A DNA stretch of 64,000 nt from Amphiscolops sp. MND2022 (lineage: Eukaryota): contig OZ076409.1 of NCBI GenBank assembly GCA_964187785.1, positions 20,462,001 to 20,526,000 on the forward strand, written 5' to 3'. Under the pieces are notes generated by a model. That model had not been told where the DNA came from, searched no databases, and saw nothing but the letters and a program-made list of their open reading frames with translations. Each line of letters begins with the position of its first letter. Positions within the stretch are counted from its first letter, which is position 1. Made by a program: the position numbers and the translations under genes. Of this stretch, positions 3,801 through 46,613 are shown in pieces.

Positions 3801-6800
3801 TATGTGGTAAAAAAAGTTGCATAATGCCGAAAAACCCAAAAAGACCCTTTAGGCTCATTAAACGCTTTTTACAAACCGACAACTTCAAAAATTTTCGGAA
3901 AAAAAGTCGCATAATGCCGAAAAACCCAAAAAGAGACCCTTTAGGCTCATTAAACGCTTTTTACAAACCGACAACTTCAAAAATTTTTGGAAAAAAGTCG
4001 CATAGTGCTGAAAAAAAACCCAATGGGGGACCCTTTGGTCTACCCTCTACTTTTGGAAACATTAAAAAACTTGTGGTTTAGTGCGAGACTCGAACCCACG
4101 ATCGCCTGCTTCTGAAGGTCTGAAAATTAGTTGGCGGAGGAGTTGAACAAATAAACAGAAAAAGTGGACCGATCGCGTTGAACTGACCAAAAAAGAAAAA
4201 AATTAGCCACTGTAAGAGTCGTGCATTTTCTTCGAAAACGCCAACTAATAATAACTTTCGAAAGTAGAAGCTATCGGTCTAACCCTCGCAAGCAGTTGCT
4301 GAAGGAGACTTAAAAATAACTTCTTCCACTAAGAAAAAATTTTTCCTGCCCAATTTAAATTTAAACTTTTTAAAATGATCATCACTGTTTTAGCGTTTTC
4401 TTAGTAACGCCAAGGTAACAAACTTCGATCGGTATCTAAGAAATTCGCCTCGAACAGCTAGTAAGAAATCGCGTGTTGACTGAATGTGTGTTTACAATTC
4501 TGAGTGATTTATGTACTTGAAATTTCACTGGACCGTTTGCAGACGCAGGAATGTTACGGAACCCCGGAGAGGCCAATCTATTCGATTCAAATTAATTTTC
4601 CGTTGACGCGATCGAAATATTCGTCAGAAAATCTTTGAATATAAATGAACACGCCTCCAAGGAAAATCTTGCTGTTCCTGATGAATTTAGTTCTCATTCT
4701 CTACTGAGATTGATCGAAGGAAAAGGCCAAATTTGGTTCTCATTCTCTACTGAGATTGATCGAAGGAAAAGGCCAAAAATTCCTACCAGTCACCGGTTTC
4801 GTTGGTAATGATTTCTGGTATAGTAATAATTTTTGTTCGACGATTGCGGAGGTAGTATATGAGATGAACACAACGACAGTCGTGGCGTTTTGTTGTCAAG
4901 TTGAAACACTTTCCGGAAGGGTGCGGGATTTTGTTGTGTCTTTAGAACCTGTTCCTTATCTTAATTAGCACTGAAACCCGGCCCACTTCATAACATATGT
5001 AAAGTGATAAATTTATTAGTTTGATCGTGTTTGCAGATAAAAGCACAACTAGTTTGTCACTGTTTCTGTCAAAGATTTGAAACCGTTGGAAATCATGAAC
5101 CGTTATTCCAATATAAGGTTTCGTGGAACCCTGTTGCGAAAGTCTCTGTCGGTTTGTTTTGCTATTGAAGCGACACAGGAGAAACTGTTTTAGCACAATC
5201 TCAAGTTCTAGCAGGCATTAAAAGGCTTCATTTGCCAATAAATGGATCGATTTTAATACGTCAACATTTTGTTTCTACTGCATATTCAAAGAAAGGAATG
5301 TGTTAGTTAAACGATATTTGCTGACCCTTCTGCAATCTGATCTCGTGTTGAAATGGCGGCCAAATTTTGAAACTTAATAATTCCCAATCATAGTTACGAC
5401 GCAGACCATGTAGTTTATTGAATTTTTATTTGGTCGTCGTCTGTCAAAAAATATGGAGCAAGTAAGTTTTGCTGACTTTCTAGAAGGGTGTAGTTTGACG
5501 TTTAACCTCTTTGTGAACTTCAGTCTTTTCCTCTTCAAATCTTTGGCAGTTATTTGTTTCAATAGAAATTTTCTATTTTTTGCATTTTTGATACAAGGAG
5601 TCATTCATTCAGAACTGCGCTGAAAATACTGAAAACTTATTTTTCCCATGAATTTTATTGCTTCAGAGGTTTGACATTTGATTTGAAACTCTTGTTTCTC
5701 GGCAGACGTGAATTGTTCCATTTCGTAGGTTTTCATTCTAATTATTAGGAAGAATCAGTTCCTGAATTGCCTGAAATTCCTTCCGTTTTTGACCGAATGA
5801 TGCCGTTTTCTGGCACAATGCAATTTTTCGAAAATTAAGTCATTATCTTGTGATACAGCCAAAATGTTTACTTCAAAAAATATCAGGTCTAATTTTGATA
5901 ACTACTTCTCAAACTTAAAAAATTGCCGAGCTGGATTGACAGACTTTTTAAGTCTCGTCCATAAAATTGTGACTTAGCGATTCCTTGAGTCAAATTTGTT
6001 TCCAATAGTTGAAGTTTGTATTGAAATTGCTTTTCAACAATATATAATTATGCCGGAATTATGAATTCAATGGCGGAAATCCCAAAATATTGCCGGCCGT
6101 TTTCAGCGAAAAAAATTCTGCTAGTAATTACACAGCTAGTAATGCGTTAAAGTAAATGCTCTTTAACCTCGTTAGTGATTTCGTCCTCAGATGAGGACAG
6201 CGATTTTTTGCACAATCAATAAAAAATACGAAACGCAAAAAGCATATAGGAAAACGAAAGTTTGTCTTATCAACAATCTATTAGACTATTTGGGGCGAGT
6301 TGTTATTTGTGTCAATATAGTTTGTTTTTCGAACTACCGTCAAAAAAGTAACTGGAAAAAGTTAAAGTTTGCAAAAAAATACTTTTCAGAAAATTAGCTT
6401 TTTCTCAATAACACAGCAAGTGTTTGCTAAGTTACTGTCACACTCTAGTAACACAGTTTGCCACCAATGAAAACGCATATAGAAGTTTTTCGAGGAAGCT
6501 GCCGCTAAGGGTGCGACCGGTATTTGAAAGCCCGGCTACCAACCCCCCCCCCCCCCAAAAAAAAAAAGTGGCGCCAACTCCCAGCTTAACTAGTGTGCAT
6601 TTGAAAGCTTAGGTAAAGGGCTTTCAGGAGCAGAAAACCGTTTTGAGCTGTGGCTATTATTCGTAGAGAAATTAGGCATTTAAAAAATGTTGCCAGTTTT
6701 TTGTCAATTTATCGACTTCTTGGTGTGCTGACAATGTTAATGCTGTCTGAAAATAGATTTTATTATTTTTGATTCATGTATCTGCCGTTGGATGACGGTT

Positions 6801-12800: not shown

Positions 12801-15800
12801 GATCTAGCAGTTTTTGCTGATTTTCTGAGTCTTTTTATTCAATCACGCTGAATTCACTGCCCGTGGTTTGAATTCTCGCAGTTGCCACGAAATGGTATGA
12901 TAAACGACTAGTTAACCCATTTTGTAGCTTCCTATCGTCTCAAATTGTATATTTTCGTAGATTTCTTCATGTATGTTTGTTCATTCAATGTTGAAGGTGT
13001 TTTTTCAGCATTTGAGGGTCACGTTGAGGTGTGTCAGCTGTTAATGCAATCTGGACTTTCGGTCAACGACCTGGACGACGAAGAGCGCTCTCCTCTCATC
13101 TGTGCGGCCCAGGAGGGTCACCTGGACGTGGTCAACTTCCTCATCATGAACGGGGCGCGCATAGACCACATGGCAGTCATGAGTGGACAGAATGCTCTCC
13201 GCGTCGCTGCTCTCGAGGGACAGGCACAGACTGTGGAATATCTTCTCACATCAGGTGAAGCTTACTAATCCCCATTTTGCACAATCTAATAGAGATAAAC
13301 ATTTTTAATGGGCGGGCGCTTTCGTTATAGTGGTGGGTGCCTGTTTTAAGACCAGCAAACTGATAGATTTCTATAATTTATATAACTTGGAGGAACTTGC
13401 CTTGGCCTACTTGTTCCCGCCACTTGGCCTAGTGGTTTGCACGGGAGTGCCACTGTGCGACTTTCGAAAAATTTTCATTTGATCAAAATGCGTTTTGTGG
13501 GCCTAAAGGATGTCCGATTGAGTTTTTCGGCACTATTTGTTAGAGAAAAATTTGAAAATTTTTGATGTTACCAGAACAAGTTATTTTCGAGTCTCAAGCG
13601 TACCCTTTGACTATTTTTCTAAACTTTGATGAGTATAGTAGCGTAGATAGAAACTCCCTTATTCAGTGTCACTGAGATTGCATTCATCTTCGAGTTGGAG
13701 AATTGGTAAAAGTTCAAAATTTCATCTAGTCATTTTCTAATCGAATTGTTTGGACTTCGACGGCCAACGTTTTTTGTAGTCACTCAATGTAAACATTGTT
13801 TTTCAGGGTCTAACATCGATTTGCGCGACAAAGATGGTCGAACTACTTTATACGTATTGGCTCAAGAAGCCAAACTGGAGATGGCTCGTTTGTTCCTGGA
13901 ATGGAGTGCCTCGGTCGACCTCAAAGACCACGATGGGCGTTCTCCCCTGATGGTGGCCGCATGGCAAGGTCACGTGGAGATGTGTCAGTTCCTGATCCAG
14001 CACGGCGCTGACGTCAGTTGCGTGGATGTGGAGTCTCGCAGTGTGTTGCAAATGGCTGCGTGGCAGGGTCACACGAGTATAGTGCGTCTCTTGTGTGAGT
14101 CAGGGGCTGATATCAATTCCATGTGCAGTCAGGGAGCCACTGCTCTCACCATCGCTGCCCAGGAAGGACACATGGATGTGATGGAGTGCTTACTCGAGTT
14201 CGGGGCCGATCCTCTCATTCAGGTTCCACCAATGCTTTGATTCGGAAGCTTTTATGTCGTTGTATAAGTACTTCTATGTAATATGGGCATCTTTCTGTTT
14301 CGCTGCTAACCATCATTTTAGCATGTCAATGTAAAGTGTTTTCAAACTCACTATCAATTCATCTGAAATTTTACTATTTTTTCATGTGGACTTCTGTCGA
14401 AATATGTCTATAGATAGCAACTTATTCAGCTCAAATTAATTGTTAATGTACTCAATACTAGAAATAGTCCCGCAATCAATTTTTACCGGTTACTATTTTT
14501 GCGGAAACTTCATTTTCACAGAACTTTTATGAACTAAAATACTCACACGTTGACCAATGTTTGGTATTTAGATCTCGTTGAATTTTAATGCACCAATTCT
14601 GGTTTACCTTTGTGATAAAGCAGTCTATAAGGCCATGTCCTTGGTTTTGGCGCATGTAATTTGTTCGAAAGTTACATTTGAATCTCAGGAATTTAATCGG
14701 CATTTTAATCAGCTCGTAATTTGTGGTCATTCGCCATTGTTCGATAACATTAAGAGATATTCCTGGCAAGGTTTTTGTTTTCGATTTGATATCATTGTTC
14801 GAAAGCGAGGGAATTGAAACTTGTTGTTTCAAATTCGCTTGTCACCTAATTACGTTTTCCCAACCAAGTTTTTAGAAAGTTTCTGGGAGATATATTACAA
14901 GTTGTATATTTAATGCAGGATGCTCACGGGCGCAGTGCTTACAAAATGGCAATGTTGGGACGATATCCTGAAGTGAAGGAACTAATGGAACGGGCTACTA
15001 CATTTCGAACCTCTTTACAACTTGAACAGGAAACCTCTTCTGTGCCTAGTAACCGCAATTCACCAATCGGACTAACTCAACAGCAACGAAACTCATTCAA
15101 AAGTCGTGAAAACTCGCCAGTGGTTGTGCAACAAAGACGTGGGTCTATGCATTCTGTACAAAGAAACTCTTTCGGTCAAAAAACTGCCACCGCTTTCGAC
15201 CCAAACAATTTTGGCGTTCCTCAAAGGGAACCTCCGCCGCCTCCGATTTCTCTGGCACCAAGTACACCTACAGATAGCTTGAATCAAGCTGATTTCAACC
15301 GTTATCAGAAAGTGCCACCCGTTTCAAGGTGCTCCGATAGTCCTGTTCAACCTCAGATGAACTACAAACAGATGCAACCACAGAGAGCAATTGAACATCA
15401 GCCACCGTGTCATCATAAACAAGTATCAGAAAAAGTGCTGAACAACCCTCATGCAATTAACAACGTGAATAGTAATAGTAATAATAACAACATCAACATG
15501 AACACTAATTACAACATAAATAACAACTATCTTCCAGATAGAAATCGGGCATGGAGTGAGAGTCATAAAACTAATCTGAATTCGCACTCGCAGCATTCCC
15601 ATCTCAGTATGCAACCTCAAAACATACTTCCACCGCAGTCCAAAGAACCGCCATTCTTTGCCCCTGACAACGTAGGTCTTTTCCATCCTGACAACATGGT
15701 AGTCAATAACAACTTGAAGCAGAATTCTTTGAGGAGAAACCAAAGGATTTTTGTAGACCCAAGCAGTTGTCATGTACAGGAGAAGCCTCCAGCTGTGATT

Positions 15801-17033
15801 GGCCAATATCATGAAATGGCAGCGGCTCCAACGAAGGCTCCGAATGCTGTTGGTGCTCAGCCCTCTACTGGCCTTGGTAACAACCCTCAGTACATCGACC
15901 TTACAAAGCTTCAGAAGAGTATACTACTCCAGGCCAGAAAACAAGAAATAGAAGACCGTGAGCGGAAGAACAAGAAACGAAAACGTAGTCTGTTCACCAA
16001 AATTCATAATTTGTTGAAGTTCTCTAACATCAAATCAAAAACAGAGGCATCCAAAGGAAACCAAAGTGGTCAATTGAATGCAACCAGTCCATTATCAGAT
16101 GACGAAGTATCAGTCTCAGCTTTCGCAACCAACCCCAACACTCCAAATTGTGATCAACTCAACTCTGTAAACAATAGATTCACGTTTGGTTCTCCTAGAA
16201 CAGGCAGCAACGCTGACTATTACTTCCAGAAGCATCGAAGCAATCAGAACAATAACAGATCCAGTTACAAATCCACCTCATCTGATACTCCAATTTCGGA
16301 CAAAAAATCAGCCGACTATAGACGCCTTGTCGACTTGAGTCACCTCAGAACAGTTGATCCTATCACTTCTCGCTCCTTCAGAAACTATGACAGACTCGCT
16401 TCGATAAAAAGTCGCCAATTTCAACAAGCAGCAGGCAATTATGCTTCTGTAAGAATTCCAAATGGTGCTAACTCCAACATGAGGGTCGAAACTTTGAATG
16501 TTCAAAATTCTGCATCCAACCAATCTCCGGTTCTGAACACACCGAAGAAGAGTTATTATATCTCTCTGGCAGACTTGAAACGCCCACCTTCCAGACCACC
16601 TCCGCCCGTGCCACCGAAAGAAGCGCAAAACTTGTTCCAGGCCCGAGTGAGCCGTCCAACTATTCCGAACAGACTTCCAAACCAGAATGCCCACGTGTTT
16701 GAACACGTGAACGGCATGTCCAAAGTAGTTGCCCAGAACCAAGCCAATGTTCAGTCCACCCCCAAATCAGACTGTGTAGATTCTTGCTACAAGTCAGACC
16801 AGAACCAGCTGAATTCCAAAGATAATTGCGACAATGTTTCATCCGGCTTGCCTTCTTTCAACTCCTCCAACTATATCAGGAATTACATGAACCAGCGGGA
16901 GATGATGACCAGATACCAGAACAGATTGATGAATGCGCCCAAGTTGGAAACCATCCAAGAACCCAATGGAGGAACCTTAGAAGCCTTGAAGGCAGCTCGT
17001 CTGGACAGCATTCCCTCGACAGAAGATACATAA
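828..17033 (+). CDS. ANKRD50: Ankyrin repeat domain-containing protein 50-like (multi-exon, 5' end upstream of window)
   Basis: Phase-compatible GT-AG exons: 828-1141, 2420-3046, 6822-6917, 7508-7661, 12258-12383, 13009-13254, 13807-14222, 14919-17033 (TAA). The first exon (EWITDVKLCGREFVVSAAEGHAMLAL...AELLALWVLWIG) resembles the ANKRD50 pre-ankyrin segment. It is followed by many ankyrin repeats (GWTALRAAAWEG, RTPLRAAAWRG, GRSPLMVAAWQGH) and a long low-complexity tail. The cag|gtacct at position 1-9 may be the donor of the previous exon. Confidence 0.85.
3605..4248 (-). mobile_element. Helentron-associated non-autonomous element (HINE/DINE-1-like), intronic copy
   Basis: Reverse-oriented copy of the family described for 20625-21283: acaagccgggaacggcctaagtcggcg at the left end, internal tandem atgccgaaaaacccaaaa units, a tRNA T-arm-like actcgaacccac, and gaaaacgccaactaa at the right end. 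Confidence 0.6.
4560..5604 (-). pseudogene. Possible highly decayed Tc1/mariner-like transposase remnant
   Basis: Minus-strand fragments in collinear order but different frames: QITAKDLKRKRLKFTKRL...IFFD...NKNSIN, VFQLDNKTP (cf. FQQDNAP) and IDWPL (cf. DWPP). Very degenerate. Confidence 0.3.
4692..4778. repeat. Direct duplication of about 41 bp (period about 46)
   Basis: ttctcattctctactgagattgatcgaaggaaaaggccaaa occurs twice in tandem. Confidence 0.85.
9212..9359. mobile_element. Small inverted-repeat element (MITE-like)
   Basis: Perfect 13-bp inverted repeat ctctcgtgtaacc ... ggttacacgagag enclosing about 120 bp; no clear TSD. Confidence 0.4.
9642..9770. mobile_element. Small foldback-type MITE with internally repeated arms
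   Basis: ataacgtctaaa twice on the left and tttagacgct/ttatt twice inverted on the right; flanks aaataaaac / aaatgaaac resemble an imperfect 9-bp TSD. Confidence 0.45.
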
Positions 17034-20624: not shown

Positions 20625-21283
20625 TTAGTCGGCGCTTCATGAAGTGAAACGCGACTATTATAGTGGCTTTTCTTTTTTTTTCAATCCACACGAACTGACC
20701 AAAATAGTTCTACAAAATATTATTGCACCAAATTGCACTATTTGGTCTAGCGAACTGAACCAAAAAGGTTTTTCCTGTTTTCCCGCGTAACATACCATAC
20801 CCGGCGAGACCAAAGGGTCCCCCCTTCCAATTTTTTTCGGCACTGCGAGACTTTTTTTCCGGGAATTTTTTTTCCTCAAAGGGTCCCCTTCATTTTTTTT
20901 GCTGTTTTGCGACAGAATGGATGTTGGAAAATCCCAAAGGGTCCCCCCTTTCAGTTTTTTCGGCAATGTGAGATTTTTTTTCCGAAAATAAAAATTTTTC
21001 CCCCTTCAATTTTTTGATGTTTTGCGACAAAACCCCCTCAACTGCGATAAAAATGTTGACAATTTCGGAAGTGTCCCCCTTTCAGCGCGCCAGGGGCTCG
21101 CGCTAGCGGGCTCCGGCGCGCCACTCAGTCCATTTTTTTGAGTATGTAATTTTTTCGAAAAAATTTTTTTCGTAAAATTTTCGATTTTCGAGTACTGTAA
21201 AAGAGAATACTTGACACTTGGAAGTCTGTTTGCTATTTTTGAGCCTTGGATATGGCGCCGACTTGGGCCTGTCCCGGCTTGTT
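20625..21283 (+). mobile_element. Helentron-associated non-autonomous element (HINE/DINE-1-like)
   Basis: Starts TT-agtcggcgc followed by a short inverted copy (cgcgact). Central tandem ttttcggcactg/gggtcccc units. Ends with the sub-terminal inverted repeat ggcgccgact, a GC stem-loop (gggcctgtcccggc) and ttgtt. Many copies in the window. Confidence 0.65.
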
Positions 21284-21367
21284 TAAACTCAAAAGCTCCG
21301 TCCACAGAATTCAACAACATTTCTGGGCAAAAACATTCCTGGTGTCTGGTGGAAGTCTAGTAACGAT

Positions 21368-21614
21368 TGTTCACGCTAATATGACCTGAATGAACTTCAT
21401 GTTAAATACTACTTGAATTTCTTCATTTATGACTTTCTAATTACTCTATGCCACGTTGCTTAACATGTTTGACTTCAATGAATAACCAATCATATTGCAA
21501 TACGTAATTGTTCACGTGGCTTCTCATTCACTCATTTGTTTAGCAAGTCAAAGAAAACGTTTGGATTTAATTCAAACTTTCAATTTCTTTTTTTGCCACA
21601 ATCGGCTCAGAACA
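21368..21614 (+). repeat. 5' LTR of BEL/Pao element
   Basis: TGttcacgct...ggctcagaaCA; direct repeat of 28186-28432. Confidence 0.95.
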
Positions 21615-21619
21615 TTTTT

Positions 21620-21637
21620 TGGTGCCGCGACCCGGGA
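21620..21637 (+). promoter_or_regulatory. Primer binding site (tRNA-His-like)
   Basis: TGGTGCCGCGACCCGGGA 5 nt after the LTR end; resembles the complement of the tRNA-His 3' end (TGGTGCCGTGACTCGG). Confidence 0.7.
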
Positions 21638-21682
21638 AACATTCTCGGAAATTCTTCAGCAGCTCTCTCTAACTACCAATTC

Positions 21683-24600
21683 ATGGCGGAGGAGGAGTTA
21701 ACAGGCCAACAGGCACTGACAATGGCCGAACAAAAGGTTCGTCTCAGTCAACTCAAGAGAAGACGAGGCGGTCACAAATCGACTGTCACAAAACTTCTAG
21801 CTGACGCACAGGTTATTAGTCAAACCGGCTCTACAGATAGTGCCACAATCGATCGATTACAGCAAATTGTCGAACGAATTCGCCAGAAACAAAAGGACAT
21901 CGCAGCAATCAATGAGCGATTATTTGACATAATAGATTTGGTTGATCCAGATTCTATTGAGCAAGAAATAGAAGAAACTGAACGAGCGGCCGAGCTACAT
22001 GCTGAGGATTTGTGGAAGCTCGAAAAACTCATCGAAAACTTCACCAAGCCTCTCAAGCCGGTCATTCCTTTACAAACTACAAGTTTATCCAGTCAAGCTA
22101 CACCAAAGCGAGACAATGCCAAGCTCCCAAAACTAAACATACCTGACTTTGATGGTTGTTACAAGTCTTGGACTTCCTTTTGGGATCTATTTCGAACGTC
22201 TGTGGACGCGAACAAGAGTTTGAGCAGAGCTGAGAAACTCAGTTACTTAAAATCTTTCTTGAAAGGTGAACCTGCTCGGATCACTTCAGCATTACAGATT
22301 ACAGACGCCAATTATGACGTCGCATGCAAGGTACTACAGGAACGTTATAACAATGAACGATCAATTGTGAGAGCCCACACAGCAGCTTTATTGAATTATC
22401 CTGCTCTTAAGCAAGAAAGTGCAGCTGCGCTCCGCAATTTACAGTGCGAAGTCAGTGAAAATCTGTTTGCGCTTGAAGCCAAGGGATTTTTTGAAACTCG
22501 GAAGGATCCATTGGTACTCAATCTTGTAGATGACAAGCTTGATCATGAATCAAGCCGCCAGTGGGAACTCAGCCTCGAAGGGAACGACGTTCCAACTCTC
22601 GATAAGCTGCTTACTTTCATTGATCACCGAGCAAGGGCACTTGAAACTCTACCTCGGAAGGAGAAACCCAGCATTCCAGCAGCGTCACGACCCGCAGCAA
22701 GTGGCAAGCATATGAGCTACCATCAACAAGAACAGCCGTGTCCAGTGTGCAATGCGGGCGAACATCGGATTTATGGCTGTCCCAAATTTTTAGCGATGAC
22801 TGCAGAGCAAAGATACGCTGAAGTTTTGAGGTTGAAACTATGCGGGAATTGTCTGCAACCCGGTCATTTGAAAGCCAAATGTCCCAGCAAGCGCAACTGC
22901 AAAACATGTAACAGGCGTCACAATTCTCTATTACACAAAGAGAATACATCCAACACAGTGGGACATGCGCAGGTAATGCTCACTAATGATAATGTCCAAA
23001 CCATTTTGGGGACTGTTGAGATGTCTGTGCTTGGCAATGGGGGAAAATGGGTTCCAATGCGGGCCCTCTTAGATTCGGGATCCACCTATAACATGATCAC
23101 GGAGCATGGGGTCCAAAGACTTGGGTTACACCCCAAGCAAACTACGACAACAATACGAGCAGTTGGACAATGCACAGGTCCACATCTCAAAGGAGAGATC
23201 AACGTGCAATTACTGTGTAGATAATCTGCAACGGTGCTTCCCACGAATCTAGCTGTGACCAAAACGATCACTGGTCTCTTACCAGCAACTAAAGTATGTT
23301 TGCCAGAGAATCAATTAACAGGTTATAAAATGGCAGACCCTAATTTCGGAACTCCTGGTCCCATTGATCTCCTAATTGGTGCAAATCTTTATGATACAAT
23401 CGTTCTCAGTGAACGAATCAAATTGCAAAACAGACTGTTTTTGCGAAATACTCTTTGTGGTTGGATGCTTTCTGGCTCACTATCTAGTCGTGTTAAAGGT
23501 GATCTTCAACGTTCCTTTCATGTAGCTATCGACCCATCAGTTAATCAATCTTCAACTAATGATCCACTGACGAGATTTTGGGAAATTGAGGAAATCCCGA
23601 AGAAACGATTCCTAACACCGGAGGAAGAGCAGTGTGAGCAAATCTTCAAGGACACTACAAGACGGTGTGCTGATGGCAGATTCTCAGTGTCTCTTCCCTT
23701 CAATCCTGAAGCTAAACCACTCGGTGATAGTTTTCAGCATGCCCAACGGCGTTTCTTGTCTCTTGAGAGGCGCCTAGAGAAGCAACCAATACTCAAGGAG
23801 CGATACTCCAAGTTCATAAATGAATTCATTGATCTTGATCATTTAGAGATCATACCTGTGGATGAAATTGAAAAACCAGACAACGAGATGTTCTACTTGC
23901 CACACCATTGCGTTGAAAAGGAGGCCAGCACAACGACAAATTTGCGTGTGGTGTTCGACGCATCCGCCATTACCACTTCAGGCACATCTCTCAACGATAT
24001 TCTGCTTACAGGTCCTCGACTTCAAGATGATCTTTTCGAAATACTACTCAGATTTCGGTTTCATCGCATCGGTCTTACAGCGGATGTAGAAAAAATGTAC
24101 CGACAAATTGCTCTGAATTCACCTGACAAGGACTTCCATCGTATTTTGTGGCGAGAGCGAAAATCCGAATCACTCAAAACATACAGAATGACACGTGTGA
24201 CCTATGGGGTCAGATCTTCAGCGCATCACTCCACGCGGGCCCTTCAGGAGACAGCTCATGTCGAGTATGATTCTCAAACAACGGCCGTGGTTCTGCGCGA
24301 CTTTGCCGTAGACGACTTACTCACAGGACCATCTAGTCTTGAGGATGCTCTTGAGCTCAAGAACAGAATTACTACACAGCTCAAAAAGGCCGGATTTAAT
24401 CCCCGTAAATGGTCTTCAAGCAGTTCTGAATTCATGCACAGGTTGCCTGAAGCATTGCAAGAAGCACCCTCAGCTTATATTATTGAAGACAGGAATCATA
24501 GTATTAAAGTTCTAGGAATAAAATGGATTCCTCTCGACGATTACTTTTGCTTCACAACACGTGAATTTGAAGATTACAACCCTACAAAACGTCAACTGTT

Positions 24601-26871
24601 GTCAGATATCGCCAAACTTTATGATCCTTTGGGGTGGTTATCACCAGCAATAATCAAATTCAAATTGCTAATCCAGGAGACATGGTTGGCTGGAGTTGGT
24701 TGGGATGAGGCCGTCGGAGACTCAATTGCTACGAAATGGCGCAGTGCCAAAGACACATTTAGCGATCTGGCTCAAATTAAACTTAACCGTTGTGTGCTAC
24801 CTCCCGGAAAAATCTGCACTACCGAGCTGCATGTATTTTGCGACGCGTCGGAACGTGCTTATGCTGCAGTAGTCTATTCACGAATTCAAGACGATCTTGG
24901 CACCATCCGAGTTCAGCTCCTTTCGGCGAAATCCAAGGTTGCACCAATCAAAACAGTAAGCCTTCCACGGTTAGAATTGTGTGCAGCCGATCTGGGTGGT
25001 AAGCTAGTGCCAATCTGCAAAGACGCACTGGAAAAGATGGATGTTCAAATTGATTCCATCCATGGTTGGACAGATTCCACAATTGTCTTGTCTTGGTTAG
25101 CAGACTATCCATCGAATTGGTCAGCCTTCGTTGGCAATCGAGTTTCAAGCATTCAGAAGGCAATAGCCCCTGAGCAGTGGGGGCACGTGGACTCGAGCAA
25201 CAATCCTGCAGATTGCGCCTCTCGGGGTCTTCTGTCTCAAGAGTTGACAACTTTTCAGCTTTGGTGGGATGGACCAAGTTGGCTCACGACTGATAGCAAC
25301 CACTGGCCACAGCAACCTGTCGTGCCCAAAATGATGCCACCTGAACGTCGAAAAAACAAAACAGTGGCGCTGGCAGTAGCCAGTCCTCCCGCCCCAGTGA
25401 TTGATGTGGAGCGCTTCTCGCAGTGGAGAAGACTCATGGCGACGACGAAAAGAATTGTCCTTCTGACAAGTAGAATCAAATCAAACGAAGAATACTCAAA
25501 ACTGGACGAGGTAACAGCCCACTTGAAGGCCCGTAACGCACTTTTGAAGCTTCATCAGCAGCATCATTTTGCGACCGAAATCAATCAAATCATCGGGCAA
25601 AGGCAATATACTGGAAAACTCTTACCGCTCTCTCCATTCTTTGACAACGAAGATAACCTGCTCCGAGTTGGTGGCAGATTATTGCAAAGCAATTACAATG
25701 AGGACATCAAATTTCCATTTATCGTCGCGGAAGATACCCATTTTGCAACCCTATTGATAAGGGATGCCCATCAAAACACTCTGCATGGTGGACCGCAAGC
25801 AACGCTCTACAAGCTCAGACAAGAATTTTGGATCACAGGTGGAGTCAAAACAGTGGCACGTATCATCAAGCAGTGCATCACCTGTATACGCTTCAGCAAA
25901 AGCACCCACCAGCCTCAGATGGGCGACTTGCCAGCAGAGCGAATCTCCTCAACTAGAACTTTCACCAATGTCGGCCTGGACTTTGGTGGTCCAATACACA
26001 TTAAGATCAGCAAAGGCAAGCTTGAGAAGGCCTGCATTGCGCTCTTCATTTGCATGGCAACGAAGCTATACACATAGAAGTTGTATCATCACTGACAACA
26101 GCAGCTTGCGTCGCAGCATTGCGCAGGTTCGTTGCACGACGAGGGCTCCCATCAGCTATCTTTTCCGACAATGGAGCAAATTTTATTGGTGCCAGAAGTG
26201 AGCTTTCAGCGCTTCTAAACATCCTAAACGACAAGTCAGCCAATTCTCTGACTCAGTTCTCCAACGCTAAAGGCACTGCATGGCTCATGATTCCACCCAG
26301 AGCACCGCACTTTGGAGGTCTATGGGAGGCCGGCATCAAGAGTTGCAAAACGTTATTGCGCAAAATTGTTGGAGTTCAAACCTCAACCTTCGAGGAGCTT
26401 TACACTGTGCTCACTCAAGTGGAAGCTGCTCTCAATTCACGCCCCATTGGCCCCATGTCTTCAGACCCGAATGACTTGAACGTTTTGTCACCGGGACATT
26501 TCCTCATCGGATCACCACTCGATGCATGGCCAGATGCAACTGATTCAAAGGACCTAACACTTAATCCTCAACAGCGTTGGAAGTTAATGCAGCAACTTTC
26601 ACGAAGCTTTTGGACTCGATGGCAAGCCGAGTACCTTAACAACCTTCAACACAGAAGTAAATGGACAAAAGATGTGCCCATCTTCCAAGTTGGCGATCTC
26701 GTCCTAGTTAAAGAGGACAACAATCCTCCACTTGTATGGCCACGCGCACGAATCACAAGGATCTTCGCAGGCAACGATGATGTCATTAGAGTGGTTCAAT
26801 TGAGGACGGCAGCAGGAACCTACAATAGACCTGCCTCAAAATTGAGGCTTCTGAGTCCTACTGGAAACTGA
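21683..26871 (+). pseudogene. BEL/Pao gag-pol polyprotein, disrupted by one in-frame stop and one frameshift
   Basis: Gag (LPKLNIPDFDG..W.SFWDLF, DUF1759-like), three zinc knuckles (CPVC..H..C, CGNC..GH..C, CKTC..HNSLLH), protease ALLDSGS, RT (ADVEKMYRQI, FAVDDLLTG), RNase H (LHVFCDASERAYAA) and integrase (H..HGG..CITC, GLDFGG, SDNGANF, GGLWEA). In-frame TAA at 23222-23224; 1-nt deletion near 26060 (ATK-LYT instead of ATK-AIHIEVV). Confidence 0.93.
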
Positions 26872-27251
26872 AAATCGCAATCAGGAAAGTTGCTCTAAAT
26901 TTGCAACTATCATCACCTCCTAGAGCTCAAATCGAAAAAAACGCTACGTCATGACTTATCACGGACCTTATGGAAGCTCATGTATCCATTATTGAAGCCC
27001 TATAACTTACAAGCTTTATGGGCGAACACCGTTTATCATGCAATCTTGTTTTATCTTAAACAAATTTTTGTCGAATTATATTTATTACACTCTTTCAAGC
27101 CAACTACTTTGGATGATTTATTCTACTCCTGCATACATGACTGGACTACCACGAATGAAACCGAACTCAATTGGCGTAATCTTCAATTGAAGTTCATCAA
27201 ATATCACAACAACAATTCAGCAAAAATCAAATTTGATTTCAAACATACCCA

Positions 27252-28127
27252 TCACTTGCGGCCAAAGCGTTTCTTCCGAATGGGCAGGCGAGCACCCGTC
27301 CTGGGCTCTCCTCCTTGTCTGTACGAGCCCTTGCGACCACATTGCTCCTCGTCCATCCTGCACATGAACTTCTGAGCCTTCAAATTGTTCTGCTGAAGTT
27401 TGTCCTCTGGTGGTAGGCAAGTGAAGGTTATCATGGACGTCACACCCAAAGACCACACTTGATGGGCGAAGCCCCACGGGATGTACACTGTGACTCCAGG
27501 AGTCTGCTTAAACCAGATGACATCGGTGGGCATCCTGTCCTTCACTTCTTGTGCCCATTCAATCAGGGAGTAAGCAGTTTTCCTTGATTGAAGTCTCCTT
27601 CCAGCACGACGATTCTTTGCCAACCACCACAATTTTTCACCCTGTTGAAGCTGACTCATCACTGTCACTGCATTTGGACTTCCATCAAAGTGCCACCCAG
27701 TGAAGGCGCAACCAGTGCTGAAGTATAATTGGGCATCATGCATTCTGTCGGGCGGGCGAACACAACGTTGGAGCAACTCGCAATAATCCTCGTCATTTGA
27801 AGCAAGCACTGTAATTGGATAGCATTGCTTGATATATCGAGTATCAGGGTAATGCTGTGTCGATTCATTGGCAGTCCATTCAAATGCCTCACCCAACTCT
27901 GTCACAGTCCGCGCTTCCTTAGAAATTCGCTCGGCATTCTCCTCCCGGTAACGCACCACCGGACTGACGATGGCTGCGGGCTTGTTTGGGCACAATAGTA
28001 CTTCTGCGACACTCTTGCAATGAAGAACCTGATCTTCTCTCAAAGACTCGTAACTATTCCGCAAGTACTGCTCTGCTGCCTCGAGACTGTTAAACATCCA
28101 TCGATGCTGCCCCGATCTGGTATTCAT
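27252..28127 (-). CDS. JmjC-domain 2-oxoglutarate/Fe(II)-dependent dioxygenase (retrotransposon-borne, antisense)
   Basis: Intact 291-aa ORF. LYFSTGCAFTGWHFDGS (T143, H146-x-D148), QGEKLWWL (K165) and FKQTPGVTVYIPWGFAHQVWS (H222) match the JmjC HxD...H and T/K cofactor pattern. Basic C-terminus PIRKKRFGRK. Confidence 0.85.
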   Translation of the reverse strand: MNTRSGQHRWMFNSLEAAEQYLRNSYESLREDQVLHCKSVAEVLLCPNKPAAIVSPVVRYREENAERISKEARTVTELGEAFEWTANESTQHYPDTRYIKQCYPITVLASNDEDYCELLQRCVRPPDRMHDAQLYFSTGCAFTGWHFDGSPNAVTVMSQLQQGEKLWWLAKNRRAGRRLQSRKTAYSLIEWAQEVKDRMPTDVIWFKQTPGVTVYIPWGFAHQVWSLGVTSMITFTCLPPEDKLQQNNLKAQKFMCRMDEEQCGRKGSYRQGGEPRTGARLPIRKKRFGRK

Positions 28128-28185
28128 CTATCGTATCTGAAAGAAAAGGAATTTGGGATATCACGAAATCCCAAGGCCGCCGGGA

Positions 28186-28432
28186 AGTTCACGCTAATAT
28201 GACCAGAATGAACTTCATGTTAAATACTACTTGAATTTCTTCATTTATGACTTTCTAATTACTCTATGCCACGTTGCTTAACATGTTTGACTTCAATGAA
28301 TAACCAATCATATTGCAATACGTAATTGTTCACGTGGCTTCTCATTCACTCATTTGTTCAGCAAGTCAAAGAAAACGTTTGGATTTAATTCAAACTTTCA
28401 ATTTCTCTTTTTGCCACAATCGGCTCACAACA
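28186..28432 (+). repeat. 3' LTR of BEL/Pao element
   Basis: Copy of 21368-21614 (first base T>A), preceded by the PPT-like aaggccgccggga and followed by TSD ACGAT. Confidence 0.95.
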
Positions 28433-29058
28433 ACGATAACCAAATTGTGGCAATATCCACTTAGTAATAGTAGTTTTGCTGCAAACATTCAAGAAAGCTC
28501 AACGGCGAAAAAATGAAAGTTCATGCTGCTGCGTTGATCAAGATTTGACATTACCGTAATGTGACCCACACAATGTAAAGCTGTACAAGTACTAGGATTG
28601 TCCATGATTCAACATGCGAGTGGTGCGCTTTAGTTTTCAATATTTCTGAGTCAGCTGAAATATAGAAATCAGCCACACTTTTTTCCAGATTTCAATCTAC
28701 GTTTGGTCGTCAATTCTGGTAGCAGTAAGGCAGCGCTACTCCGAGTCTTTAGCTAGTTCATTCAATTCTCGTAACAGCGAAGCGAGTGAGAGTTAATTAT
28801 TCGTACGCCGAAAGCTTCGCCTGGGTTCAAAAATGAATGCGAAACGTCATATACTGTTTGTCGGTGTATGCTTTTGTTAATGCAGGTAAGTCCGAGAAGA
28901 ATCAAGGAAATCAACAAGAGTGCATTATTATTATTTCAGATATTTAAGTTATTGGTTACTGTAGCTCAAAGCGGAAGAATACTGTGCTCACAGTGGCCCA
29001 ATTTAGCAAAGAAATGCCTTAATCCCTCAACTTTTTCACACGTGATAAGCAATTGTTT

Positions 29059-32030
29059 TTAGTCGGCGTTTTCGAAGAAAAATGCGCGACTCTGACAGTG
29101 GCTAGTTTTGTCAGTTCAACGCGATCGTTCCACTTTCCCCACTGTGCACTCTTGCCATAAGTACTTAGTACTTAATTTGGAACGCATCCAAAGCCTCTAA
29201 CATGAAATAGAAAACCATTCCAAAGCAAAGGGGTTCCCGCTTTCCAGGTTTTTCGGCACTAAGAGACCCCCTTAACGGTTTGGTGAGACTTTTTTTCGAA
29301 ATTTTTTTAATGCCTCCAAAGGGTATCCCTTCAAATTTTTTGTGATATTTTGCAACAGAATGGATGTTAGAAAATCTCAAAAGGTTCCCCCTTTCACATT
29401 TTCTGGCACTGTGCGACTCTTCGAAATTCTAAGTCATTAGGTCCTCTCAATACATATCCACCAATAATTGTTTCAATACTATCCGATTTTCTTCAAAAGG
29501 TCGGTTTAAAATCAAAGCTTATATCTAATTTCTTTTTATCGAAATCCCCTCGATTTTAACTAGAAACAAAAGGTTTTGCGAGCAAAGAGGACTCCTTAGG
29601 GTTTTCGGCATTGCGACATACCGAACATATTTTGAGAACAATTTCGAAAATTTTCCCCAATTTTTCGTTTTTCAAGAGGTTGTCGGTTGAACAAAATGGT
29701 TTTTTTTACATTTTCCAGTTGGGGAACAAGTGGTTTTCGACTCTTATGCGTATCCCTTTTTTGGCACTAAAATTGATGAAATTTTAACAATAGTGTTCTT
29801 TTGCAAATTACTTTTGAACTTTGAGCGGGACGCTGACTTGGGCGTTCCCGGCTTGTTGAAACTAGACGCTTCATTTTCTGGCTCCCTCGCTGAAGTAGCC
29901 AACAAATTACAGAACTAGCCCGCAAAACCTTGGATTTATAAGTTTCCCTTTCGTTTTGCCTAATGGAGTATGTCTTCAATCGTCGCTTTATGAAATAAAA
30001 CGCGAGTACTTTTCGTCGTGTTTTTAGTCGGCGCCTTTTCCCTTAAGGAAAAAAGCCCGACTATTACAGTGGGTAGTTTTTTAGTCGGCGCCTTTTCCCT
30101 TAAGGAAAAAAGCCCGACTCTTTCAGTGAGTAGTTTTTTTTGTTTTTTTTTTCAGTTGACAATCTCACTCTGAGTGGTCCACTTTTCTTACAATTTGTTC
30201 ATCTTTCATATTTGTTCATCTTTCATATTTGTTCATCTTCCATCTTCGACCAAGCCGGAGAGCGTGGGTTCGATTTTAATGCTTCCAAAAATACAGGTGA
30301 GACCAAAGGGTCCCCCCTTTGGGTTTTTTTCGGCACTCTGCGACTTTTTTCGAAAATTTTCGAATTTTATCAAGGGGTACCCCCTTGCATTTTTTGAAGT
30401 TCTCGGTTTGTAGAAAACGTTGAATGAGCCTGAATGGCCTCTTTTTGAGTTTTTCGGCATTGTGCAACTTAAAAATACTTTTTTCGAAAAAAAAATTCAA
30501 AAGTAATTTTTTTGAAAAATTTTTTTTTCCAAAAATTTCCAGTAGCTGCTCCTTGAATATTTTTGAGCCTAAGATATGGCGCCGACTTGGGACGTTCCCG
30601 TCTTGTTTTCTTTTTCAGCTGACAATCTCACTCTGAATGGTCCACTTTTTTTACAATCTTTTGTTCATTTGTTCAACTAATTTTCTGAGAAGCAGCAGAG
30701 AATTTTCTGAGAATCGTGGGTTCGATTCTCGCACTGAACCACAAATTTTTTATGCTTCCAAAAGTAGAGGCGAGACCAAAGGATCCCCCTTTTGGTTTTT
30801 TTCGGCACTATGCGACTTTTTTTCGAAATTTTTGAATTCTATTAAAGAGTACCCCCTTGCATTTTTTTGACGTTTTCGGCTTGTAAAAACGTTTAATGAG
30901 CCTAAATGGCCTCTTTTTGAGTTTTTCGGCATTGTGCGACTTTTTAAAAAATACTTTTTTTGAAAAAAAAATCCAAATGTTTGCAATAGTTGTTCCTTGA
31001 ATATTTTTGAGCCGTAGATATAGGACGTTCCCGTCTTGTTTCCAATCCAATTTCATGCTGAATGCCAATACCCTAAATTCGACAAAATTTCTAAAAATTA
31101 GCCAATTGATCGGAAAGGTCTCCCGCTCTCATTTTCACATACTTATTCGTATTCAAAAAGAGTTTGAGTGTAATTTTTGGAGTTGTGCGACTTTTTTGGA
31201 AAGCGGGTTTTTACGGGATTTTTCGATAGAAGAAAAAAGGTTTTGAGACCAAAAGTTTCCTTGTGGGTTTTTTGACAATGTTTTCTTTCAAAAACAATTT
31301 CACGGAGTTCGAGGAAAAAGCGTTTTTAAGTTCAAAAAGTCCTTCCTGGCGGAGGTTCTTGACGCTTTGAGATACTTTGCTCTTTTTAGTCGGCGCTTCA
31401 TGAAGTGAAACGCGACTATACTAGTGACTCTTTTCAATTTTTTTTTCATTTCACACGAACTGGCCAAAATAGTTCTACCAAATTTCCACAAAATTTTAAG
31501 GTGCCAAGTTGTACCATTTGGCCCAGGGAACTGAGCCATAATAGTTGTTCCTTTTTACCATAACATGCACAACCGAACGAGACTGAAGGTTTCAGTAGTA
31601 ATTTTCAAGTCACCGAAAACTTCCAAGCAAACTTTATTTTTTCATTTTTTTGTTTCCTCAGAAGAGAGGTTTTTGCGAGGTTTTTTTCATTTTTCCTTTT
31701 CCACCAGTTTTTGCCTGGGGCTACTTGACAGCTTGAATGAAAAATACTTTTCTTTTTGGACTAGCGGTTAGTGCTGGAAAGCAGATGTACGTGTGTTCAA
31801 ATCCCACGTTGTCATTTTTTTGTGATGTTTACAAAGTCGACACCAAATGGTCACTGTTTAGGGTTTTTAGTCGGCGCTTTTATTAATAAAAGAGCCCGAC
31901 TATTACAGTCACTCGTTTTTTTTCTTTTTTTTTCAAACAGACTCTTTGCGACGATTTTTTTTGTTCAGTTTGTTCAACTAAACTAATACCTGGGAAACGC
32001 ATCTAAGCTACCGCAAAGGGCCCCCTTTCA
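29059..32030 (+). mobile_element. Cluster of tandem/nested HINE (DINE-1-like) copies
   Basis: 5' ends ttagtcggcg at about 29059, 30024, 30081, 31386 and 31867; 3' ends (gcgccgacttggg..ttcccg.cttgtt) at about 29857, 30607 and 31040; shared internal repeats. Confidence 0.6.
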
Positions 32031-44374: not shown

Positions 44375-46087
44375 CTACCTTGTCGTCACCCGATAGGTCA
44401 TCTTTTCGTCGAGTATCTGCGCTGCATGTTCCTCCGCTTTCCACCTTCCGTGCTTCCTGTGACTGATCCAGCTGCAAGAATCAGCGCTTGGCACAGGCAC
44501 ATTTCGTTTCTGTTCCACGCCAGCCTCGCATTGTCCACTGTCACTGACACATCTTGGAACAGGCGTCTTCTGGGGTTCGCTTGGGGCCGGCGGGTGGCAG
44601 AACCACTTCCCTTCTGGAGTTAACATCGCCTTGCGCATCGCTTGGCCTGTATCGCCACCGTCAAGTTTCATTCTTCGTCTGTCGTAGACTTCCCTCGCAG
44701 TCCTGTGCTCGTCACCAATCGTGGGACTCTTTGATGGACGCCAATGGTCACCAGTTGAGTTCAACGCATTAAGCTGACTTTCTCTCGCTCGGTCTTGTAG
44801 TGATTTACATCTTGTTTCTCGGAGCTCACGCACCGATGTCATCTTCGTCTCATGGCGTGGATGCTTCGGACAAATCCTCGGGAGTTTCATGAACATCTCT
44901 CGTGAGGGCGTACTGAGAGACTTCCCTTCTAGAGTTTGCCCACGTTGATTGACTCGAGATACTTCGCCCGATTTTTCATTCACTTCTGAGTGGTTGTTCT
45001 CCATATCAACAATGAGAACACCCGTTTTCGCGTCTCCACTATCAGAGTTCAACAGCATCAGCTCAACTCCAGGAATACGTTTGTGTCGAATGCAACTTCG
45101 ATCACTCTGTTCAAAGATGTGAGACACCTTGCCTTCTCCCCATTTCGTGGCCTTCCAGCGGCATACGGGGAAAAGACATTGCCTGTGCTGCACCCAGTCT
45201 TCCTCACACAACAGTGACGCAGCTCGTCCCCAATTAACATACGAAGGCCAAAACGCATTATCCCATCTGTTGGAACATCTGGGTAAAACTTTCAAAGGCA
45301 AAGAAGACTTTCCACAGTCGGACAATACGTTTACTTGCACCCACAAGGCAGTCATGAACCACAGAAATGAAGTCCAAACCTTTCTCTTGAGTCTGGCAGA
45401 GCTTGCCGCCGTCAGCTTGATACCAGCGTTGCGGTCTGGCACACGCTGATATGCTGTCCTCACAACTTCAGTCCTGTGTCGCGGGTCCCATTGCAGTTCA
45501 TCATCAACAACAAAAGTCTGAACTCCGTCCGGCGGCCTTTCGGCTTCCGTCTTCTGCACATGCATCCCGTTCTGAATGTCTTGCTTCACGTATTCTAGTT
45601 TCAAACCAGCTAGCGCATCTGTGGGTTTGAAAACACACTCAATTTCTGGGATGGGACATTTCCCAATTTTGACTTCCCACGTTTCATCAGTTCTTTGCGA
45701 GAGCTCAGTTGGTACTTCCTGTATGAAAAAACATCCTTCACTGGAAATCGTAGTTCTCTCAGCACTCATTTGTTCAACATCTGCAGCTGCTGCTTCACGA
45801 TTCAGTCGAATTATTGGGCTTTCAATCAAGCCACGTTCTGACCAATTGACGTGATTGATCTGAACGTTTATCTCGACATCATACTCAACCCAAACGCGTT
45901 GAACAATTGCTTCTCCAGATCTAACGTCGAATACTGATGAAGGCTCAGCAGCTTCATTCTTCCGCATCAAAGTTTCTTGGATTGGCATCATGATTGAGGA
46001 GCACCTCTCTGGAGTCATCTTGGCTCTGTATGGTTCCACTCTGTCGACGGCCATTACTTTCATTTCTCTAGACAATGCTTCTTTCAA
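44375..46087 (-). CDS. Uncharacterised 570-codon ORF in LTR element interior, possibly heavily diverged pol-derived
   Basis: Long open frame with only faint echoes of pol motifs (EIECVFKPTDALAG; STPSREMFMKLPR; EVYDRRRMKLDGGD). No YxDD or DDE triad recognised. Confidence 0.4.
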   Translation of the reverse strand: MKEALSREMKVMAVDRVEPYRAKMTPERCSSIMMPIQETLMRKNEAAEPSSVFDVRSGEAIVQRVWVEYDVEINVQINHVNWSERGLIESPIIRLNREAAAADVEQMSAERTTISSEGCFFIQEVPTELSQRTDETWEVKIGKCPIPEIECVFKPTDALAGLKLEYVKQDIQNGMHVQKTEAERPPDGVQTFVVDDELQWDPRHRTEVVRTAYQRVPDRNAGIKLTAASSARLKRKVWTSFLWFMTALWVQVNVLSDCGKSSLPLKVLPRCSNRWDNAFWPSYVNWGRAASLLCEEDWVQHRQCLFPVCRWKATKWGEGKVSHIFEQSDRSCIRHKRIPGVELMLLNSDSGDAKTGVLIVDMENNHSEVNEKSGEVSRVNQRGQTLEGKSLSTPSREMFMKLPRICPKHPRHETKMTSVRELRETRCKSLQDRARESQLNALNSTGDHWRPSKSPTIGDEHRTAREVYDRRRMKLDGGDTGQAMRKAMLTPEGKWFCHPPAPSEPQKTPVPRCVSDSGQCEAGVEQKRNVPVPSADSCSWISHRKHGRWKAEEHAAQILDEKMTYRVTTR

Positions 46088-46613
46088 GAGAGAACTGCGA
46101 CGCTTCCAGTCATAATTTCGTTCATTTCAATGACTAGGGACTTTTGAGCGGTCAGCTGGATTCGACTCTCAAAACACACAGATGCAACCCTGATATTTCT
46201 TGAGCCTACTTGACAGACTGGTCTCAAGCTTTCAGTACCTCCATTGATCCACTCACCAAATACTGGGCCTGACATCCCGCCAAATCTTGATTCAAGCAGT
46301 GTAGGATTATCCGTCTTTTTACCGGCGAGCCTCGTTTTCTTCCCGTCTTCGATCTGTCTAAGAGCTTCTTCTAAGGTCAGTGGTTGGTACGGACAATAAC
46401 TGTCAACGTCACTATTCAGCTCGCTCCAGATCTCGTCCTTCTCATCAGACCACTCTTCATCACTGGAATAGCTGCACCATTCGCTTCGTCGAGGCTGCCT
46501 GTGCGCAGTACCTTCGTGGTCTCCAATGAGATCATCACAATCGTCATCGCTGTCTTCACCTCCCCAGTATCACGCTTTCCACGCTGATGTTGACCTCGTC
46601 ACGCGTGCAGCGT

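Follow-up and report, generated by a model that had tools for sequence, protein, structure and literature searches.

The subject of this work is a gene carried on the antisense strand of a retrotransposon in the genome of Amphiscolops sp. MND2022. The window, that is, the whole stretch of DNA that was analysed, comprises 64,000 nucleotides (contig OZ076409.1, positions 20,462,001 to 20,526,000), and it contains a BEL/Pao long terminal repeat (LTR) retrotransposon in which an open reading frame (ORF) of 291 amino acids lies opposite to gag-pol, between the integrase and the 3′ LTR. We will show that related ORFs are found throughout the genome, in retrotransposons of two superfamilies. Judged by its sequence, the ORF appears to be a conserved accessory gene of LTR retrotransposons, encoding a stand-alone and probably active JmjC-type Fe(II)/2-oxoglutarate (2OG) oxygenase with a basic tail that resembles a nuclear localisation signal.

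The element and its antisense ORF

The host element is a BEL/Pao LTR retrotransposon, as seen from the TG..CA ends of its LTRs, a short target-site duplication (TSD), a site resembling a primer-binding site (PBS), and Pao-type domains. Its features, in window coordinates, are the following:

21363..21367: left TSD, ACGAT; the same 5 bases occur again at 28433-28437
21368..21614 (+): 5′ LTR, 247 nt, TGT..ACA; direct repeat with 28186-28432, 98% identity
21620..21636 (+): PBS-like sequence TGGTGCCGCGACCCGGG, 5 nt past the 5′ LTR; role suggested by its position and TGG start
21683..23224 (+): gag-protease frame (DUF1759, Asp_protease_2), terminating at the in-frame stop 23222-23224
23225..26077 (+): pol frame (weak RVT_1, Peptidase_A17, which is Pao-type, and Integrase_H2C2), in the same frame as gag
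26026..26871 (+): integrase C-terminal frame (DUF5641), in a frame different from that of the preceding pol
27117..27122 (-): candidate poly(A) signal AATAAA, 130 nt 3′ of the stop of the JmjC-like ORF
27252..28127 (-): antisense ORF, 291 aa; predicted JmjC-fold core at about residues 9-260 and predicted-disordered basic tail at 260-291
28137..28151 (-): polypyrimidine run ending in AG (possible 3′ splice site), 10 nt 5′ of the ATG; polypurine on the + strand
28186..28432 (+): 3′ LTR, its inner edge 58 nt from the ATG of the ORF; candidate site of an antisense promoter
28433..28437: right TSD, ACGAT

The two LTRs differ in their first base and, over the 246 nt compared, have 4 mismatches. Pfam recovers Peptidase_A17 (E 3.9e-50), DUF1759 (E 7.1e-34) and DUF5641 (E 2.9e-33) from gag-pol, and a PDB sequence search with pol gave no match. 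The sense frame is broken twice, once by the stop at 23222-23224, which splits it into 21482-23224 and 23225-26077, and once by a frame shift between 26026 and 26077. A preliminary description of the locus, made from the DNA sequence alone, had reported a TSD-flanked BEL/Pao element with two lesions in gag-pol, and both statements are borne out by these features.

The same description had placed an intact and intronless antisense ORF between the integrase stop at 26871 and the 3′ LTR, which we confirm: the frame runs from ATG to TGA with zero internal stops. The residues that it had singled out are all found where it had put them, namely T143, H146-x-D148, a GEK motif with G163 and K165, I216-P217..G219..H222, and the tail RKKRFGRK at 284-291. 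In a family-wide check for poly(A) signals, AATAAA or ATTAAA was found within 300 nt in 11 of 26 ORFs, compared with a fraction of 0.22 of random 300-nt windows, which is a weak signal.

Fold and active site

The Pfam JmjC model matches the window ORF over residues 133-232 with an E-value of 5e-4 and a score of 20.9 bits, which is below the gathering cut-off of 24, and a single-sequence PDB search gives weak cupin matches. We also aligned 24 family members, with identities of 19-53% to the window ORF. Pfam JmjC recognises 19 of these at E≤0.01, with 3.6e-7 as the lowest value, and ORFs above the cut-off include those at L045 (31.1 bits), C7:12012850 (32.9 bits) and C12:55304416 (32.2 bits), where L and C numbers label loci and contigs. 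Compared with the PDB, the family profile gives 36 matches at E≤1, made up of 30 JmjC enzymes and 6 cupin phosphoglucose isomerases. The top matches are ceKDM7A (1.4e-6), JMJD6 (2.9e-5) and PHF8 (9e-5), followed by UTY, KDM7, KDM6A/B, KDM2A and NO66. The motifs T-x2-H-x-D, G-x-K and A-H-x-V fall on their counterparts in ceKDM7A and in JMJD6, the two enzymes whose alignments were compared.

An AlphaFold (AF2) model calculated on the family alignment has a mean predicted local distance difference test score (pLDDT) of 82.8 and a predicted template modelling score (pTM) of 0.79, with pLDDT values under 50 at residues 1-7 and 260-291 only. Foldseek finds 448 PDB matches to this model at E≤0.001, with JMJD6 first (3.9e-8), and among the matches listed all are JmjC or related 2OG oxygenases. 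The structural Z scores are best for the KDM2/KDM7 enzymes (14.4-13.7 over 222-233 residues), with JMJD5, FIH and UTY at most 1 Z unit away. The nearest clusters in Protein Atlas are JmjC/cupin ones (scores 0.92-0.95), which we use as a lead only. Profile and structure searches had been proposed in the preliminary description as a check of the JmjC assignment. They support it as far as the profile and fold matches go, but the window ORF itself stays under the Pfam cut-off.

In JmjC enzymes, an HxD...H triad binds Fe(II), and a Thr/Ser and a Lys position bind the C5 carboxylate of 2OG. The conservation of these positions was followed in an alignment of 65 rows, in which the window ORF is joined by 26 distinct ORFs of the same genome and by 38 proteins from databases, many of which are fragments. 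Among the rows that cover the position in question, H146 is kept in 58 of 60, D148 in 60 of 60, K165 in 59 of 60 and H222 in 48 of 49, and there is a Thr or Ser at 143 in 57 of 60, at an overall family identity of merely 20-30%. On the strength of the alignments and the model, we assign the ORF product to the JmjC fold, with a full HxD...H triad and with Thr/Ser and Lys at the 2OG positions, in agreement with the cofactor-binding pattern recognised earlier. Because the five cofactor-binding positions are near-invariant in so diverged a family, catalysis is favoured over a scaffold role. It is very probable that the ORF is a real JmjC-fold accessory gene of a transposable element, and, to judge from these residues, we consider it likely that the encoded oxygenase is catalytically active.

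Outside the core, a basic C-terminal motif, similar to G-[RK]...[RK][RK][RK]-[FY], is present in most full-length members of the 24-member alignment, in a tail that is predicted to be disordered. Pfam and the model show JmjC alone, with no reader (PHD, CXXC, F-box), no DNA-binding domain and no other module for targeting. A search for longer or fused forms among the longer proteins of the word-indexed collection gave none at E≤0.001, which is weak evidence.

Distribution of the family

A six-frame tblastn search of the 1.07-Gb assembly of the same species with the window ORF, in which 134 of 300 candidates were scored, gave at least 130 matches. Of the 130 match rows listed, 57 fall, by our count, within frames of 260 aa or more that are free of stops. 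Two queries from other subfamilies gave 130 and 96 rows in the same genome at E≤1e-10, of which roughly 9 and 12, by a rough tally, are shared with the search using the window ORF, and the family total exceeds 300 match rows.

The subfamily of the window consists of six DNA copies with identities of 87-100%. The ORF region is present in all six of them and, among the matches listed, the ORF is open in one, the window copy. Two of the copies (C5:38280872-38287838 and C5:38298399-38305375) are located 17.5 kb apart and have identical ORF lesions, which suggests a segmental duplication and not two insertions.

The surroundings of the ORF were followed at 21 loci (L010-L030). A BEL/Pao-type pol end adjoins the ORF in 14 of them and a gypsy-type integrase in 3, while in 4, where the flanks are short or the contig ends, the neighbour could not be assigned. 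The ORF and pol are convergent, i.e. antisense and tail-to-tail, as in the window, in all 17 of the assigned loci. Whether the ORF is a fixed part of its element family had been raised in the preliminary description, and the presence of the region in every subfamily copy, together with this constant arrangement, speaks in favour of it. The gene is not a one-off capture; the family is carried by many diverged retrotransposons of the genome.

An exhaustive search of 1.84 billion representative proteins gave 27 matches, and the word-indexed protein search gave 2 relatives with the single protein and 3 with the profile. In the 24-member alignment, at least two of the database relatives are identical at every aligned residue to ORFs of this genome. 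A metagenome scan with the single protein gave no match; with a 9-sequence alignment it gave 3 contigs of 1.2-1.8 kb with relatives, on which pol context is lacking.

Three architectures

The ORF is found in three different architectures. The first is the internal one of the window, where it is located between pol and a short 3′ LTR.

In the second architecture, the ORF is embedded in the LTR. Among the at least 130 matches listed, there are 17 same-strand pairs with a spacing of 6.3-7.6 kb, and in the 4 pairs examined the ORF lies inside long direct repeats (LTRs of 1.4-1.9 kb) that flank a BEL/Pao gag-pol. The element at L042 (C11:43.64 Mb) has LTRs of 1879 nt (TGT..ACA, 99.2-99.3% identity over two aligned segments), a 5-bp TSD AGACT, a PBS-like site, and a single gag-pol frame of 1657 aa with DUF1759, Peptidase_A17, rve and DUF5641. 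Each of its two LTRs carries, antisense to gag-pol at LTR positions 354-1175, a JmjC-like frame of 274 aa. Since it is the start of the LTR that differs, with the place of the gene relative to pol unchanged, the embedded gene is part of U3 and is doubled with each insertion. We also observed two regions, C9:11606246-11617419 and C10:26795356-26813149, with dense same-strand partial JmjC-like matches every 1-5 kb; these clusters resemble tandem arrays of fragments of the LTR-embedded subfamily.

The third architecture is of the Ty3/gypsy type. The element L049/L041 (C1:34.80 Mb) is 10.8 kb long, has 446-nt LTRs with 98.9% identity and the TSD CCTGC, and contains a zf-CCHC gag, protease, RVT_1 (72 bits), RT_RNaseH and rve, with no Peptidase_A17 or DUF5641 found by Pfam. 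The best PDB match of its reverse transcriptase is Ty3 (E 1.5e-26), and a JmjC-like ORF of 300 aa lies antisense between pol and the 3′ LTR. Some 700 nt past this LTR there is a tandem repeat of about 104 nt, with units 86-90% identical (L041 8245-10000, C1:34812244-34813999).

In a second gypsy-type family (C7:12.01 Mb and two more sampled loci), the pol of which is 51% identical to that of the first, pol is followed by the JmjC ORF and then by two sense ORFs (466 and 298 aa), the first of which is head-to-head with the JmjC ORF across about 650 nt. The two sense ORFs (L045, C7:12007500-12017499, at 2037-4296 on the minus strand; also L024, L025 and L029) occupy the env position and are 93-100% conserved in three copies; they gave no Pfam or PDB sequence match. 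Taking the architectures together, the ORF is antisense and tail-to-tail with pol in TSD-flanked elements of two superfamilies, BEL/Pao and Ty3/gypsy-type.

Selection and descent

The ratio of nonsynonymous to synonymous substitution rates (dN/dS) was calculated by the Nei-Gojobori method for six ORF pairs from different copies or subfamilies, two of which share one ORF. The values are 0.24-0.44, and in all six pairs the synonymous differences are above the neutral expectation (binomial p 1e-9 to 6e-3). These ratios indicate that the ORF is under purifying selection and not evolving neutrally, the latter being the outcome that the preliminary description had set against its own reading. Nearly identical ORF copies have ratios near 1, on very few differences, which is what decay after insertion would be expected to give. 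As a control from pol, an integrase piece of 157 codons from the gypsy-type loci L024 and L025 has an omega of 0.38, compared with 0.24 for the JmjC ORF at the same loci. This is the one clean control; the other four are unreliable, their high-scoring segment pairs (HSPs) being of unequal extent.

Co-divergence with integrase was evaluated for 7 of 12 chosen elements, all seven BEL/Pao (L001, L020, L046, L023 and L026 were dropped, as the integrase HSP was short, absent or interrupted by a stop). The identities of the JmjC ORF and the integrase C-terminus are correlated with a Spearman coefficient of 0.51 over 21 non-independent pairs, and the mean pairwise identity is 0.29 for JmjC vs 0.55 for integrase. 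From these comparisons, gene and element appear to descend together, the gene changing at about twice the rate of integrase.

A maximum-likelihood tree was calculated for 34 ORFs, from 26 of more than 230 aa and 12 external ones considered, rows shorter than 230 aa being left out. Its shallow clades are well supported, and its deep branches are long and unresolved (46/59 support). The gypsy-linked ORFs fall into at least two clades, as do the LTR-embedded ones. The tree points to a likely exchange of the gene between element types, the direction of which cannot be read from it.

Proposed function and alternatives

As the ORF is on the opposite strand and intronless, it should not be expressible from genomic RNA and would need a promoter of its own. 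In the mechanism that we propose, it would be transcribed separately, from a promoter that lies antisense within the 3′ LTR/U3 or next to it, in the manner of the antisense genes of deltaretroviruses and of the antisense additional ORFs of plant elements. The ATG faces the 3′ LTR in the window, the R/U5-proximal part of the LTR in the embedded form, and a sense ORF in one gypsy type, and this placement in the three architectures suggests a divergent or antisense promoter there. The basic tail would carry the protein into the nucleus, where it could strip repressive methyl-lysine from chromatin by KDM2/7-like chemistry. This demethylation would in turn relieve the host's transcriptional silencing of the whole element family in trans. 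Demethylation is chosen here as the most likely activity because the closest profile and structural matches are demethylases of mono- and dimethylated H3K9, K27 and K36, and because host control of transposon transcription relies chiefly on chromatin methylation.

That the ORF product is a histone demethylase acting against silencing is a proposal we make only tentatively, and this applies also to the whole chain including the role for the element. A fuller version can be formulated, in which an active demethylase, expressed antisense from the LTR, would erase small-RNA-directed lysine methylation on the copies of its family, would do so in two superfamilies, and would be the first enzymatic anti-silencing factor of an animal transposon; it is rather unlikely that all of these parts hold together.

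Several points weigh against the demethylase proposal. The fold match, as judged from the predicted model, is tied between demethylases and hydroxylases, and the Pfam score of the window ORF is below the cut-off. With JmjC as the only domain and none for targeting, a specificity for the element's own chromatin is left unexplained. Of the six copies in the window's subfamily, the ORF is open, among the matches listed, in the window copy alone, and the gag-pol of this copy is broken; the dN/dS values amount to only moderate constraint. Finally, an antisense transcript could also feed silencing based on double-stranded RNA.

The alternative that fares best is that the protein is a JmjC-only hydroxylase similar to JMJD6, FIH, JMJD5 or TYW5, which would modify a protein or RNA instead of demethylating histones. 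Its target could be, for example, a tRNA, the Gag or integrase that the element itself encodes, or a host protein such as a restriction or splicing factor. The tied fold match is as compatible with this as with a demethylase, and in sequence these hydroxylases are no nearer to the ORF than the demethylases are; nor are they known from a transposon setting. We consider this alternative somewhat unlikely.

It is improbable that the ORF works without catalysis, be it as a pseudo-enzyme that binds chromatin or heterochromatin proteins in the manner of Epe1, or through the antisense RNA itself regulating the element. There are precedents for both: Epe1 of fission yeast is described as a putative demethylase whose anti-silencing function is non-enzymatic (PMC7192584), and plant antisense ORFs (aORFs) are discussed as possible regulators via RNA (PMC7264820). 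The near-invariance of the five cofactor-binding positions is, however, what catalysis predicts, and a dN/dS below 1 means that the protein sequence matters.

The ORF could also be a fragment of a host JmjC gene, recently transduced by the element and useless to it, which would fit with the ORF being open only in the window copy among the matches listed for its subfamily. This passenger explanation is nevertheless very improbable and is largely refuted by the distribution of the gene, which is present in many deeply diverged lineages and two superfamilies with constant place and orientation, and by the purifying selection on the ORF; the lack of a longer or fused form at E≤0.001 among the longer proteins of the word-indexed collection argues weakly in the same direction. 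That the frame is open by chance, or only mirrors a gene on the other strand, might be suspected from a 158-aa stop-to-stop frame on the + strand (26899-27375) that overlaps the ORF, but chance is excluded by the homologs (the same-genome tblastn matches and the 27 database proteins) and the conserved catalytic residues, the homologs, profile and fold matches and conserved motifs all being in the minus-strand frame.

Implications

If the gene does encode a histone demethylase, animal retrotransposons would possess an eraser of histone methylation, which would be a direct enzymatic counter to the host's main means of silencing transposon transcription; such elements may come equipped with a means of their own to counteract silencing by the host. 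The known cargo of transposons includes chromatin readers (chromodomains, PHD), DNA methyltransferases, MBD, an AlkB RNA demethylase and plant VANC. Where the gene is embedded, each LTR, perhaps down to a solo LTR, would by itself constitute a demethylase gene together with the promoter needed to express it. The embedded form is an unusual packaging of a protein-coding gene. For the antisense extra ORFs of LTR elements, this would be the first recognisable biochemical activity.

The family is readily testable, as it consists of small, intronless, single-domain proteins, with hundreds of natural variants in which the active site is intact. Annotation pipelines that expect gag-pol(-env) only will overlook such genes or mislabel them as host JmjC genes.

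Other JmjC repeats and neighbouring features

A search of the genome with Pfam JmjC also revealed two further multi-copy families of short JmjC ORFs, the first represented by 27 rows with open frames of 207 aa (about 39.8 bits) and the second by 11 rows with frames of 206 aa (29.4 bits). Examples are L053 (C1:6288000-6297999; ORF 4726-5346, minus strand) and L054 (C1:26455500-26465499; ORF 4478-5095, plus strand). ORFs of these types are above the Pfam cut-off and distant from the family studied here (E of about 7e-9 with the family profile). They lie in large repeats together with ORFs containing a BRCT_2 domain and with tandem repeats, one other copy being 99% identical over more than 8.7 kb, and no BEL or gypsy pol was seen nearby. 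With JmjC ORFs in further repeats, mobile elements of this lineage may have resorted to JmjC enzymes as a weapon more than once.

In the window, dispersed repeats of 67-90 nt, AAGGGTCCCCCC...TTTTTTTCGGCAC, are found on both flanks of the element (20813-20978, 29335-29421 and 30140-30867). Some of them are spaced by about 465 nt, and they resemble a small non-autonomous repeat family. Two long frames, 14850-17033 (+, 727 aa) and 44375-46126 (-, 583 aa), are stop-free and have no Pfam match at E≤0.001. Farther out, there are host-gene-like exons with an ankyrin-repeat frame at 2411-3091 (+; Ank_2, E 4e-55) and a RhoGEF and C1 frame at 59196-60575 (+). All of the nearest clusters to the RhoGEF exon come from animals, which, like the BEL/Pao element, indicates an animal host.

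Comparison with known systems

A JmjC gene carried by an LTR retrotransposon was not found described in the full-text literature searched, the coverage of which leaves out most subscription journals and the Repbase entries; within that coverage, the remark in the preliminary description that no JmjC cargo was known in BEL/Pao elements stands.

Among characterised enzymes, the KDM2/KDM7 group (PHF2, PHF8, KDM7/KIAA1718, ceKDM7A and KDM2A) gives the best profile match and the best structural Z. The identity is, however, only about 10-13%, and the retrotransposon ORF is different in being about 290 aa long, intronless, and without PHD, CXXC or other reader.

Antisense ORFs between pol and the 3′ LTR are described in plants, for maize Grande (gene23), rice RIRE2 and Silene Retand. 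In the case of gene23, a promoter of its own drives transcription and the protein is nuclear; for none of these aORFs, according to the same review, has a clear likeness to other proteins been described (PMC7264820). The ORF of the window type is like them in its antisense orientation, its position between pol and the 3′ LTR, and its presence in most copies. Unlike them, it has a recognisable fold and active site, and it resides in animal BEL/Pao and gypsy-type elements. An antisense promoter within the 3′ LTR is described for human T-cell leukaemia virus (HTLV) in the same source. The antisense gene of HTLV is likewise a minus-strand gene at the 3′ end, adjoining the 3′ LTR; for the present gene the promoter is a proposed one, and no homology between the two is expected.

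A Ty3/gypsy element of the orchid Phalaenopsis carries, as an extra ORF, an AlkB-type 2OG dioxygenase that is an N6-methyladenosine (m6A) RNA demethylase and is read as a counter to host control (PMC9289625). The two cases have in common an Fe/2OG oxygenase as an additional ORF of an LTR retrotransposon. The AlkB ORF differs from the JmjC ORF in belonging to another family of 2OG oxygenases, in acting on RNA, and in being found in plants, in one lineage of giant elements. In bdelloid rotifers, enzymatic ORF3s are common to unrelated retroelements (PMC5408684).

Other cargo of transposable elements includes VANC of VANDAL, DNA methyltransferases in dinoflagellate and charophyte retrotransposons, and MBD in arthropod Copia (PMC5735166, PMC5890265, PMC6673714). 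The likeness here would be that of an element-borne factor acting on host silencing marks, but none of these is a JmjC enzyme. In a survey of fusions between chromatin domains and transposable elements, PHD and Chromo dominate, and the term JmjC occurs 0 times in its main text, with supplements that may bear on the point (bioRxiv 10.1101/2021.11.30.470311). An antisense stand-alone ORF would escape this survey, because domains are sought there within one gene model. Compared with the known accessory and anti-silencing cargo of transposable elements, what is new in the present case is the enzyme class, the host group and the LTR-embedded form.

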